Source: an uncultured bacterium (GTDB lineage Bacteria > Muiribacteriota > Ozemobacteria > Ozemobacterales > Ozemobacteraceae). Taken from it: 64,000 nt of DNA. The translations under genes were made by a program, and so were the position numbers. Numbering within the stretch: position 1 is the first letter of the stretch; each line of letters opens with the position of its first letter. The DNA lies in contig CALEDQ010000018.1 of assembly GCA_937949615.1 (NCBI GenBank), positions 76,161 to 140,160 on the forward strand. The letters run 5' to 3'. Below are positions 47,322 to 49,749 of this stretch, one piece after another. The notes under the pieces are model-generated. The model was not told the origin of the DNA, searched no databases, and worked only from the letters and a program-made list of their open reading frames with translations.

Positions 47322-47358
47322 CTCCCCTGCAGCAATAGCTGCAGGGGAGTTTTGTTTT
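47322..47358 (+). terminator. Rho-independent terminator
   Basis: Perfect 12-bp stem ctcccctgcagc / gctgcaggggag, loop aata, then ttttgtttt. Confidence 0.85.
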
Positions 47359-47380
47359 AGCCTGACGGTTGTGCTATAAT
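47352..47380 (+). promoter_or_regulatory. Candidate sigma70 promoter (TTGTTT-N17-tgcTATAAT, extended -10) for BMC-like/tsaA/iscU/glsA operon
   Basis: Consensus -10 TATAAT with TGn extension about 60 nt upstream of the 47440 ATG. Confidence 0.55.
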
Positions 47381-47439
47381 TCCAGCCGTTATCAGCAAAC
47401 CGGGCACGGTGGCAGAGCCATGCCCAAAGAGGGAAAGAA

Positions 47440-47778
47440 ATGAACGAATTCAACAGCAATCGCAGTATTGGCGTTACCATCAGACTGGTCAAGCGCCCGT
47501 CAAAAGGTTTCTGGGCGATTCTTGAAGGTCGCCGTGTCGATAATCAGTATTTTGAAAAATACAAACAGCCAACCGACGCTGTCGGTATGATTCAGGGCCC
47601 GGTTTCTGCCATTCTCGCCGCTTCCGACATCGCAGAAAAGGCAGCAGCAGTGCAGGTTGCCGAAATTCGCGGCGTCTGCCCGACCCATATGACCCTGATC
47701 GCCGTCTATGGCGACACATCAGCGGTTGAAGCAGCCCTGCAGGCCGTCAACGACCAGCTGTGCGACACGCTTTTCTGA
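47440..47778 (+). CDS. BMC (bacterial microcompartment shell) domain-like protein with ~45-aa N-terminal extension
   Basis: AVGMIQGPVSAILAASDIAEKAAAVQVAEIRG...LIAVYGDTSAVEAALQAV aligns with PduA/EutM core (GMvE..G...A..A.D...K.A.V....VIVRGDVgAVkAA) including the edge Lys. Confidence 0.55.
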   Translation: MNEFNSNRSIGVTIRLVKRPSKGFWAILEGRRVDNQYFEKYKQPTDAVGMIQGPVSAILAASDIAEKAAAVQVAEIRGVCPTHMTLIAVYGDTSAVEAALQAVNDQLCDTLF

Positions 47779-47779
47779 A

Positions 47780-48292
47780 ATGAACATTCGCCAGACCATA
47801 GAATTCAAACCACTCGGAGTGATTGAATCCCGCTTTGAGCAACAGGCCGGCACACCAATCCAGGGTAAAATGGCACCGCAGGAAACCGCCTGCATAAGGG
47901 TTTTCGATGAATATGCCGCCGGTCTCAAAGACATCGAAGGTTTCAGCCATATTTACGTTTTCTTCAAATTTGACCGTGCCGCCGGCAGCCAGCTTCTTGT
48001 CAAACCCTACCTCGATACGGTCGAGCATGGTGTATTTGCGACGCGCTCGCCGCTCAGGCCGAACCCGCTGGGTATGACCATCGTCAGACTCGACCGCGTA
48101 GAAGGCAATTGTCTGTATATCAGTGGCGTCGACATTCTTAATGGCAGCCCGGTAATCGATATCAAGCCATATATACCTGATTTCGATCATCACCAGCCCG
48201 AAAAAATCGGCTGGTATCAGGAAAAATCAGAGAAAGACCGTCTGGTTGTCGCCGACAACCGTTTTGCCGCAGATGGAGCCAGAGAAAAATGA
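47780..48292 (+). CDS. tsaA: TsaA/TrmO-like tRNA methyltransferase domain protein (YaeB/UPF0066)
   Basis: Motifs GFSHIYVFFKFD and RSPLRPNPLGMTIVRL, IDIKPYIP; 2-bp gap to upstream gene. Confidence 0.75.
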   Translation: MNIRQTIEFKPLGVIESRFEQQAGTPIQGKMAPQETACIRVFDEYAAGLKDIEGFSHIYVFFKFDRAAGSQLLVKPYLDTVEHGVFATRSPLRPNPLGMTIVRLDRVEGNCLYISGVDILNGSPVIDIKPYIPDFDHHQPEKIGWYQEKSEKDRLVVADNRFAADGAREK

Positions 48293-48810
48293 ATTACAGC
48301 GCCAAAGTCATGCAGCATTTTCACAATCCGACCCGCACGGGCCACCTCGACAACTACCATGGCATCGGCATGATCGGCGACCCCGACTGTGGCGATTTCG
48401 TCGAAATGACCGTCTATATTTCAGACGACAACCAGAAAGTCGAAACCATAAGATACCGCATCAAAGGCTGCCCGGCAGCAATTGCCACTACCAGCATCAC
48501 TGCTGAAATCGCCGAAGGACTGCGCATTGAAGATGCACTCAAGATAACCGACCAGCAGATCGTCGACGCCCTCGACGGACTGCCCGAAAGCAAAATTCAC
48601 TGCTCGCTACTGGCAGTAAGAGCTCTGCAGCTGGCAATTCAGGACGCAATTCTCAAACGGCTCTTCAAAAAAGCCGGCATTGTCACTTCTGATGCCGAAT
48701 TCGAGCAGATGAAGGCCGATGGCCGCCTCAGCGAATATCTGGGTCTGACAACCGGCGAAATCGGTCACAACTGCGATGGCAGCTGCGAAACCAGCGGCAT
48801 TAAATGCTGA
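48289..48810 (+). CDS. IscU/NifU-N-like Fe-S cluster scaffold with Cys-rich C-terminal extension
   Basis: Conserved Cys ligands in DCGD, GCPAAIATTS and HCSLLA; extra C-terminal CDGSCETSGIKC. Confidence 0.7.
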   Translation: MNYSAKVMQHFHNPTRTGHLDNYHGIGMIGDPDCGDFVEMTVYISDDNQKVETIRYRIKGCPAAIATTSITAEIAEGLRIEDALKITDQQIVDALDGLPESKIHCSLLAVRALQLAIQDAILKRLFKKAGIVTSDAEFEQMKADGRLSEYLGLTTGEIGHNCDGSCETSGIKC

Positions 48811-48825
48811 TAACGACAGCAGATT

Positions 48826-49749
48826 ATGAATAATATCGATTTTCAGACCTGCATCGAAGAAATTCTCAACGAAACCAGAAGCCTGATCGGCAAAGGTCGG
48901 GTCGCTGATTATATTCCCGCTCTGGCTGAAGTAGACCCGAATCAGATCGGCATCGCGGTACAGACCCTTGATGGCAAGACTTTTCAGGCCGGCGATGCGC
49001 TCGTTCCCTTTTCAATACAGAGCATTTCAAAGGTTTTTGTATTTTCGATGGTTTTCCGGGCCTGGGGCGACAAACTCTGGGCGCGCATGGGTCGAGAGCC
49101 ATCGGGCAATTCTTTCAATTCGCTGGTACAGCTTGAACACGAGAACGGCATTCCGCGCAATCCGTTCATCAACGCGGGGGCTCTCGTATCGACCGATTGC
49201 CTGCTGTCGATCAGCAAAAATCCGCTCAAAGACATTCTCAGCTATGTCAGAGGCCTGGCCGGCAACCCGAAAATCAGCTATGACAGCGTCGTTGCCAATT
49301 CGGAACGCGAAACCGGCTATCGCAATGCCGCTCTGGTAAATTTCATGAAAAGCTTCGGCAACATCGAAAACGATGTCGAGGCGGTTCTCAATGCCTATTT
49401 TCATCAGTGCGGCCTGATGATGAGCTGCGTCGATCTGGCGCGGGCCTTCAGCTTTCTTGCGAATGGCGGCATTAACCCATTGAATGGCGAGCAGATTCTT
49501 ACCCAGAGCCAGGCAAAGCGCGTCAACGCCTTGATGCAGACCTGTGGCCTCTATAACGAATCGGGCGAGTTTGCCTTCTGCGCCGGCCTGCCTGGTAAAA
49601 GCGGCGTTGGCGGCGGCATCGTCGCCGTGGTGCCGAAGATGTTCAGCATCTGCGTCTGGTCGCCAGAACTGAACCGCCATGGCAATTCGCTGGTCGGCAT
49701 GAAAGCACTCGAACTCTTCACGACACGCACCGGTATCTCGATTTTCTGA
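48826..49749 (+). CDS. glsA: Glutaminase A
   Basis: Glutaminase signature ADYIPALA...FSIQSISKVF (Ser-Lys catalytic dyad). Confidence 0.8.
   Translation: MNNIDFQTCIEEILNETRSLIGKGRVADYIPALAEVDPNQIGIAVQTLDGKTFQAGDALVPFSIQSISKVFVFSMVFRAWGDKLWARMGREPSGNSFNSLVQLEHENGIPRNPFINAGALVSTDCLLSISKNPLKDILSYVRGLAGNPKISYDSVVANSERETGYRNAALVNFMKSFGNIENDVEAVLNAYFHQCGLMMSCVDLARAFSFLANGGINPLNGEQILTQSQAKRVNALMQTCGLYNESGEFAFCAGLPGKSGVGGGIVAVVPKMFSICVWSPELNRHGNSLVGMKALELFTTRTGISIF

Follow-up and report, generated by a model that had tools for sequence, protein, structure and literature searches.

A four-gene unit headed by a shell-protein gene

The DNA analysed here is a 64-kb window (the whole stretch taken from contig CALEDQ010000018.1), and our subject is a four-gene unit within it that opens with a gene for a 112-aa protein carrying a bacterial microcompartment (BMC) domain. 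Judged by its sequence and predicted fold, this protein, from a Candidatus Rifleibacterium (Riflebacteria, Ozemobacteraceae), is a circularly permuted BMC-H shell protein of the GrpU type. Behind it follow the genes for a short TrmO_N protein, an iron-sulphur (Fe-S) scaffold of the NifU_N/IscU type, and a glutaminase. All four open reading frames (ORFs) were found on the same strand, as the initial annotation of this DNA had described them. The features of the unit are (window coordinates, strand, description):

47321 to 47350, +: intrinsic terminator belonging to the upstream gene (46699-47307); hairpin and T-run
47352 to 47380, +: putative promoter, read from the sequence; weak -35 box TTGTTT (47352-47357) and extended -10 box TGcTATAAT (47372-47380)
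47429 to 47433, +: Shine-Dalgarno sequence GAGGG, 6 nt 5' of the ATG of the grpU-like gene; read from the sequence
47440 to 47778, +: grpU-like gene, 112-aa circularly permuted BMC-H (BMC-H^p), as predicted from PF00936, PDB match, AlphaFold2 (AF2) and Foldseek
47671 to 47688, +: pore-loop motif G78-V-C80-P-T-H83, presumed Fe-S ligand site at the hexamer centre; conserved in orthologs
47780 to 48292, +: short TrmO_N-only protein, 170 aa (PF01980, TIGR00104)
48289 to 48810, +: NifU_N/IscU-type Fe-S scaffold, 173 aa, with C-terminal tail (PF01592)
48766 to 48786, +: H160-N-C162-D-G-S-C166 motif in the scaffold tail; conserved in tail-bearing homologs
48826 to 49749, +: glutaminase GlsA, 307 aa, final gene of the unit (PF04960, NF002133)

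The genes are tightly packed: a single nucleotide separates the grpU-like gene from the TrmO_N gene (the gap had been given as 2 bp), the TrmO_N and NifU_N genes overlap by 4 nt (ATGA), and glsA starts 15 nt beyond the end of the NifU_N gene. The upstream terminator is indeed strong: its hairpin has a 13-bp stem with 9 GC pairs (dG -28.7 kcal/mol, z -5.2) followed by a T-run, and it insulates the four-gene unit from the upstream gene. The extended -10 promoter proposed earlier also stands. Its pattern TGnTATAAT occurs four times in the window (4762-4770, 13873-13881, 47372-47380, and 53209-53217) against 0.59 expected; since all four copies lie just 5' of gene starts, they probably represent a real promoter type in the host, and they suggest that this organism makes use of extended -10 promoters whose -35 boxes are weak. 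No RNA elements were returned by Rfam and tRNA scans of the window.

Fold, pore and edges of the 112-aa protein

That the protein contains a BMC domain was confirmed by a profile search, PF00936 scoring 38.4 bits against a gathering cut-off of 24.5. The match spans residues 47-106 and the first 60 of the 75 profile positions, leaving the C-terminal quarter of the profile unmatched; by this match, the canonical last BMC strand is missing at the C-terminus. In a sequence search of the PDB, the best matches by far are two GrpU structures, 4olo (E 1.5e-16) and 4olp (E 4.2e-11), with PduU and EutS matching weakly (E 0.1-0.2). The GrpU alignments begin at residue 14, and the region previously read as an N-terminal extension of about 45 aa is therefore homologous sequence; according to AF2 and Foldseek, it comprises the beta-strand and helix that are permuted in a BMC-H^p. 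In such proteins, the single BMC domain carries at its N-terminus a strand and a helix displaced from its C-terminus, and the AF2 model, built from 24 orthologs (mean confidence, pLDDT, 77.5), has this arrangement: strands at 13-18, 47-52, 72-77, and 85-91, helices at 22-31, 55-67, and 93-109, hence the order b-a-b-a-b-b-a with one strand and one helix displaced to the N-terminus. The top six Foldseek matches of the model in the PDB are GrpU chains (TM-score 0.80-0.86 on the target); they are followed by an engineered permuted PduA (5hpn), the permuted HO BMC-H (6nlu), EutS, and permuted domains of BMC-T proteins.

GrpU is defined by the pore motif G-X-C-P-Q-N/H, and mutation of its pore cysteine abolishes an Fe-S absorbance near 420 nm (Ferlez et al. 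2019, PMC6325248). The corresponding motif of the window protein, GVCPTH, keeps the G, C, P, and H and has T for Q (S in deeper relatives); it aligns with the GxCPQH of relatives that are embedded in BMC loci. Among the 24 orthologs (57-98% identity), G78, V79, C80, and P81 never vary, and at least 90% have H83. Given the PDB match and this motif, the generic BMC-H assignment made at first gives way to a GrpU-type one. From the conservation of the ligand cysteine and the precedent of GrpU, we infer that the pore of the Riflebacteria clade would hold an Fe-S cluster. For a GrpU-type protein with a pore cysteine, the pairing with an Fe-S scaffold gene, which had been left unexplained, becomes explicable.

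The edge of the predicted hexamer is conserved as well. D63, K67 (in K-A-A), and R19-P20 are invariant in the 24 orthologs, which bears out the edge lysine (D63-x3-K67) singled out in the initial annotation. These residues correspond to KAAN and (P/A)RPH, the inter-hexamer motifs that the shell-protein catalogue of Sutter et al. (2021, PMC8217296) gives for facet proteins. The window protein has K67-A-A-A and K18-R19-P20-S21 at these sites, with the N position of KAAN and the H of (P/A)RPH unmatched.

Orthologs, satellite loci and co-transcribed partners

Close homologs all come from Candidatus Riflebacteria, Rifleibacterium, or Ozemobacteraceae metagenome-assembled genomes, and a protein identical to the window copy is found on more than 20 metagenomic contigs. 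Four orthologs stand in the shell-protein tree of the catalogue under the label "grpU-like1, Hp_sage" (Sutter et al. 2021, PMC8217296): CVV41_09040 (HGW-Riflebacteria-1, 112 aa), taken to be our P0027 at loci L007/L022 and 78% identical to the window protein; CVV42_03805 (HGW-Riflebacteria-2, locus L027); OZSIB_2457 (Ca. Ozemobacter sibiricus, locus L031, 61% identical); and A2W80_05930 (our P0021, 82% identical). GWC2_50_8 is also among the loci that we examined (L020). The first three of the four genes in the tree are marked "SPU7 (sat)". SPU7 is a sugar-phosphate utilisation BMC; its main locus has genes for BMC-H and for a triplet of BMC-P proteins, and for an aldehyde dehydrogenase (AldDH), a phosphotransacylase (PTAC), a PF02502 enzyme, and the PduS/T pair. 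Satellite shell genes are common among BMC systems, and the catalogue has already placed proteins of the GrpU type in EUT2, MIC6, and SPU7 systems. PduT and/or BMC-P genes of the main locus are listed there for HGW-Riflebacteria-1 and Ozemobacter (CVV41_04970, OZSIB_0719, and OZSIB_0722), that is, for the same genomes as the satellites.

The window gene heads its own transcription unit with no cargo or vertex genes nearby, as was stated before. A phmmer search of all six frames of the window, using approximate PduA, CsoS1A, EutS, EutN, and CcmL seeds of limited sensitivity, found no other BMC-H or BMC-P protein, and a Pfam survey of about 40 further window ORFs found no AldDH, PTAC, PduS, RpiB, or DeoC. 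Likewise, PF00936 and PF03319 genes are lacking within +-10 kb of the grpU-like gene in each of about 30 related loci. The surroundings are also not those of the glycyl-radical BMC loci in which GrpU belongs: no glycyl radical enzyme, activating enzyme, or shell genes lie within the 64 kb, or within +-10 kb in relatives. The term orphan that the gene had been given is nevertheless probably wrong, since its orthologs in HGW-Riflebacteria-1, HGW-Riflebacteria-2, and Ca. Ozemobacter sibiricus are catalogued as SPU7 satellites whose main loci lie elsewhere (PMC8217296). The closest relatives outside the Riflebacteria (P0067, P0057, and P0086; 49-54% identity) are encoded within complete EUT-type BMC loci, immediately ahead of EutN, PduS, and PduT, and the Riflebacteria clade clearly descends from working shell proteins.

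Some database names in this family are misleading. Among P0022, P0031, P0036, and P0053, some bear the JGI name "predicted ATP-grasp superfamily ATP-dependent carboligase", while Erysipelotrichia or Clostridiales is given as the source of others. P0053, a 166-aa "cytidylate kinase, partial" on a 1.8-kb contig, aligns with 59% of the BMC protein's length (76% identity) and is probably a chimeric call. A lone GrpU-like protein, P0056 (locus L036, 10001-11130; 51% identical), has the motifs RRPSAGFR and GLCPSH; its gene overlaps by 4 nt that of a 272-aa protein without a Pfam match, followed by an iron-containing alcohol dehydrogenase and a ribonucleotide reductase, with an Rnf cluster nearby.

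To describe the gene order in related genomes, one genome per species was retained, giving 26 loci, of which one at a contig end was left out. The genes directly after the grpU-like gene in the 25 assessable species loci are:

Short TrmO_N and NifU_N: 11 of 25
NifU_N alone: 9 of 25
Short TrmO_N alone (deep Ozemobacter branch): 4 of 25
Neither partner (L033): 1 of 25

NifU_N thus follows in 20 species and the short TrmO_N in 15, and at least one of both is found in 24 of the 25, directly downstream, often with overlapping stop and start codons, and across 57-99% protein identity. In the remaining locus (L033), a Nitro_FeMo-Co domain gene lies upstream and a thioesterase gene downstream. The operonic pairing of the grpU-like gene with an Fe-S scaffold and/or a short TrmO_N is near-universal, and it is the only new element found here; since the family and its detached location were already published, the window itself adds one more ortholog. 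The gene of this clade (grpU-like1) is described as "by itself" in the catalogue, and the parts of it used here do not mention a downstream NifU_N or TrmO_N (Sutter et al. 2021). Beyond Sutter et al., Ferlez et al., and Kimura et al., we found no literature on Riflebacteria microcompartments, on Ozemobacter or Rifleibacterium, or on TrmO together with Fe-S.

The four-gene order itself held only in part when compared with related genomes. The short trmO was deleted repeatedly: it is cleanly missing from L002 and L011, whose BMC proteins are identical or 98% identical to that of the window. L002 (10340-10407) keeps about 30 nt of the trmO 3' end, while in L011 (3918-3925) only TGAAAATG remains between the flanking genes. 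The glutaminase assignment is firm (PF04960 388.6 bits; NF002133 462 bits against an equivalog cut-off of 368, which it passes). The gene follows the unit in only 4 of the 26 species loci, and its linkage, counted before as part of the unit, is lineage-specific. A functional link between the grpU-like protein and the glutaminase was rejected on this count, and the glutaminase is a recent, lineage-specific passenger.

The 173-aa scaffold matches PF01592 with 112.3 bits, and its cluster ligands C34, D36, C61, H104, and C105 (the three Cys, Asp, and His of such scaffolds) are invariant in 36 sequences. It scores below the cut-off of all NCBIfam equivalogs (TIGR03419, 126.8 against 187.9). The extra Cys-rich tail reported for this IscU-like protein is present (H160-x-C162-x3-C166...C173) and belongs to a conserved C-terminal stretch of about 50 aa, LKRLFKKAGIV...HxCDGSC, which is found only in Riflebacteria; HxCDG[ST]C is invariant in all tail-bearing homologs. 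The AF2 model (pLDDT 89.7) has a confident IscU core with two extra helices and a flexible Cys motif, the low pLDDT at HxCDGSC indicating that this segment is probably flexible or metal-dependent. An adaptation of the tail specifically to the BMC protein was considered; the idea was weakened by the equal conservation of the tail in copies of the Ozemobacter lineage that are not adjacent to the grpU-like gene. At two loci of that lineage (L038/L039), the tail-bearing NifU_N stands in a conserved cluster with DUF134, DUF5320, (Zn_ribbon_8), Nitro_FeMo-Co, two ParA/CbiA-Fer4 ATPases, and DUF364/DUF4213.

The 170-aa protein had been named tsaA. Its membership of the TrmO_N family holds (PF01980, 138.7 bits; TIGR00104, 137.9 bits against a cut-off of 93.25), and it is a class VIII S-adenosylmethionine (AdoMet) beta-barrel protein; what it lacks is TrmO's C-terminal domain, only about 30 residues, ending in VADNRF, following the barrel. 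That domain, with its DPRxxY motif, is needed for m6t6A formation in tRNA (Kimura et al. 2014, PMC4132733). The [LV]AD[DN]RF tail was tried as a hexamer-docking peptide and rejected, because the same tail is common among short TrmO_N proteins, which have unrelated domains of many kinds as fusion partners; more broadly, a [DS]D[DGN]RF tail is common to the large short TrmO_N family and is not specific to the grpU-like system. The short TrmO_N is a frequent but dispensable partner. A second TrmO_N gene, 3.4 kb downstream at 51648-52421 (-), encodes a long paralog of 257 aa that has a C-terminal extension; its position is kept in several related loci.

On its downstream side, glsA is abutted by a convergent Secretin_N gene (49751-50599). 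Just upstream of the latter and overlapping it, a 71-aa CxxCxGxG (DnaJ-type zinc-finger) mini-protein is encoded at 50527-50742 (-). Farther away, at 30761-33268 (-), lies a gene whose 835-aa product has the domains MVP_shoulder (104 bits) and Vault_3 and matches eukaryotic major vault protein structures over residues 465-763 (E ~2e-17); on this similarity the product is a bacterial major-vault-protein homolog, a group discussed in bioRxiv 10.1101/872010. A 770-aa protein with vault inter-alpha-trypsin and von Willebrand A domains (VIT + VWA) is encoded 13 kb from it, at 15804-18116 (-).

A proposed role, its alternatives and known counterparts

We consider it probable, with a good deal of room for doubt, that the 112-aa protein is a GrpU-type hexameric tile with an Fe-S cluster on Cys80 in its pore, that its unit is an SPU7 satellite, that it serves as a redox or electron conduit beside PduS/PduT, and that the neighbouring scaffold assembles or repairs its cluster. 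Six subunits would assemble into a hexamer, with the invariant Cys80 from the G-V-C-P-T-H loop lining the central pore, and the pore would hold an oxygen-labile Fe-S cluster as in GrpU. The hexamer would tile as a minor component into the shell of an SPU7 metabolosome, presumably encoded with PduS/PduT elsewhere in Riflebacteria genomes, and the cluster could then act as a redox or electron conduit across that shell. The grpU-like gene would be expressed from a detached satellite unit with its own promoter, and the scaffold, translationally coupled to it in most species, may build or repair the pore cluster.

Several observations weigh against this proposal. An SPU7 main locus in the source genome is assumed from relatives and from the literature, and SPU7 loci of other phyla are without a grpU-like protein (Sutter et al. 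2021, PMC8217296), so that the shell does not need such a tile. At the Gln position of the GrpU pore motif stands Thr or Ser, and other residues of the Riflebacteria clade are derived too (KRPSxGFW against IKSPSxGT). No gene co-transcribed with the grpU-like gene counts as a recognised BMC component, and the proposal leaves the short TrmO_N without a role. A cysteine desulfurase (NifS, aminotransferase class V) was not found within +-8-10 kb in the loci examined. In the Ozemobacter lineage, about 45 kb separate the tail-bearing NifU_N from the grpU-like gene, so that serving the shell protein is not the scaffold's exclusive task.

Some of these points would fit an exapted shell protein, a Riflebacteria GrpU-like hexamer working outside any microcompartment as a cytosolic Fe-S carrier or redox protein with the NifU_N scaffold and/or TrmO_N. 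The gene is always distal from shell genes, its conserved and translationally coupled partners in 24 of 25 species are non-BMC proteins, a Nitro_FeMo-Co gene flanks it at L033, and SPU7 shells of other phyla do without it. Moreover, the derived RPSxGFW and GxCP[TS]H residues recur in the lone homolog P0056, whose next gene encodes the unrelated 272-aa protein. The tiling residues K67 and R19-P20 are invariant, however, and R19-P20 is nearer to the canonical (P/A)RPH than canonical GrpU is; in the catalogue, all three Riflebacteria genomes analysed there with the gene are assigned SPU7 (PMC8217296), and satellite shell genes are nothing unusual. On balance, we think exaptation unlikely. A stronger form of it, in which the Riflebacteria clade and P0056 together represent an Fe-S protein that has escaped the organelle, a free hexamer whose edge and pore residues are derived and which has a dedicated NifU-type scaffold and/or TrmO_N and takes part in Fe-S trafficking or redox reactions unrelated to microcompartments, seems to us a little less likely again.

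The neighbours could also be incidental: the protein would then be an ordinary SPU7 satellite tile, with a cluster or none, and NifU_N, TrmO_N, and glsA would share its promoter only, being functionally unlinked. The fluid partner set (either gene, both, or neither), the loss of trmO between strains with identical BMC proteins, and the sporadic glutaminase would be expected in that case, as would the wide occurrence of short TrmO_N proteins with the same tail, fused to many unrelated domains, and the conservation of the NifU_N tail even where its gene is not adjacent. Against this, 24 of 25 species keep at least one partner immediately downstream over the whole range of divergence, often with overlapping codons, and an Fe-S scaffold beside a member of an Fe-S-binding family is unlikely to be coincidental; we therefore rate such a chance arrangement as improbable, below either form of exaptation. 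Least credible, and in our view very improbable, is the reading first given to this locus, a true orphan canonical BMC-H with an N-terminal extension that forms sheets, nanotubes, or a scaffold in a genome without microcompartments. The conserved edge lysine and the lack of further shell or cargo genes in the window agree with it, but the fold is predicted to be permuted rather than extended, the protein is GrpU-type, and related genomes have SPU7 loci according to the catalogue (PMC8217296).

For shell proteins such as GrpU and PduT, the insertion of the pore Fe-S clusters and their function are still an open question (Ferlez et al. 2019, PMC6325248). The near-constant co-transcription of the grpU-like gene with a U-type scaffold in this lineage gives a reasonable lead on the maturation of such clusters and offers a simple system for the delivery of a cluster to a shell pore; it would also provide a natural pair of donor and acceptor with which electron conduits could be engineered into synthetic compartments. 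For annotation, the gene is better described as a permuted GrpU-type satellite shell protein than as an orphan BMC-H, and the neighbouring "tsaA" as a protein without the tRNA-activity domain.

Compared with known systems, the scaffold shares with the clostridial-type NifU/IscU proteins (TIGR03419, PF01592) the IscU fold and the three Cys, Asp, and His ligands; it differs from them in its sub-equivalog score, in having LPESK in place of LPPVK, in the tail of about 50 aa restricted to Riflebacteria, and in the absence of an adjacent cysteine desulfurase. The short TrmO_N protein has in common with TrmO/TsaA the N-terminal AdoMet beta-barrel with RSPxRPN and DIKPY, and passes TIGR00104; unlike this tRNA m6t6A methyltransferase, it is without the DPRxxY C-terminal domain, and in this it resembles the short archaeal-type YaeB proteins, whose target is unknown.

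Among shell proteins, PduU and EutS (BMC-H^p) have the same circular permutation and a similar size, but they match the sequence weakly (E 0.12-0.21) and are without the pore cysteine motif. PduT, a BMC-T with a [4Fe-4S] cluster in its pore, is likewise a pore-cysteine shell tile and a proposed electron conduit, and occurs in the same SPU7 systems. In contrast, it has tandem domains without permutation, forms a pseudohexameric trimer with three Cys ligands, and is paired with PduS, whereas the window protein is single-domain and permuted, and its predicted hexamer would present six Cys. From the Riflebacteria SPU7 satellites (grpU-like1), orthologs of 61-82% identity with the same length and motifs, it does not differ in kind. 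Closest in structure is GrpU, the Fe-S-binding BMC-H^p of glycyl-radical BMCs (4OLO from Clostridiales bacterium 1_7_47FAA and 4OLP from Pectobacterium wasabiae): both are permuted single-domain subunits of about 100-110 aa, with an IRGxCPxxM pore loop bearing a single cysteine, a D-x3-K edge lysine, and a GDT(S/A)xVEAA helix. The window protein is only about 30-35% identical to GrpU and has some 10 additional N-terminal residues, a GVCPTH rather than GxCPQ(N/H) pore, and an edge strand with KRPS rather than KSPT/NAPT; and its gene, unlike that of GrpU, is co-transcribed with those of a NifU_N scaffold and a TrmO_N protein.

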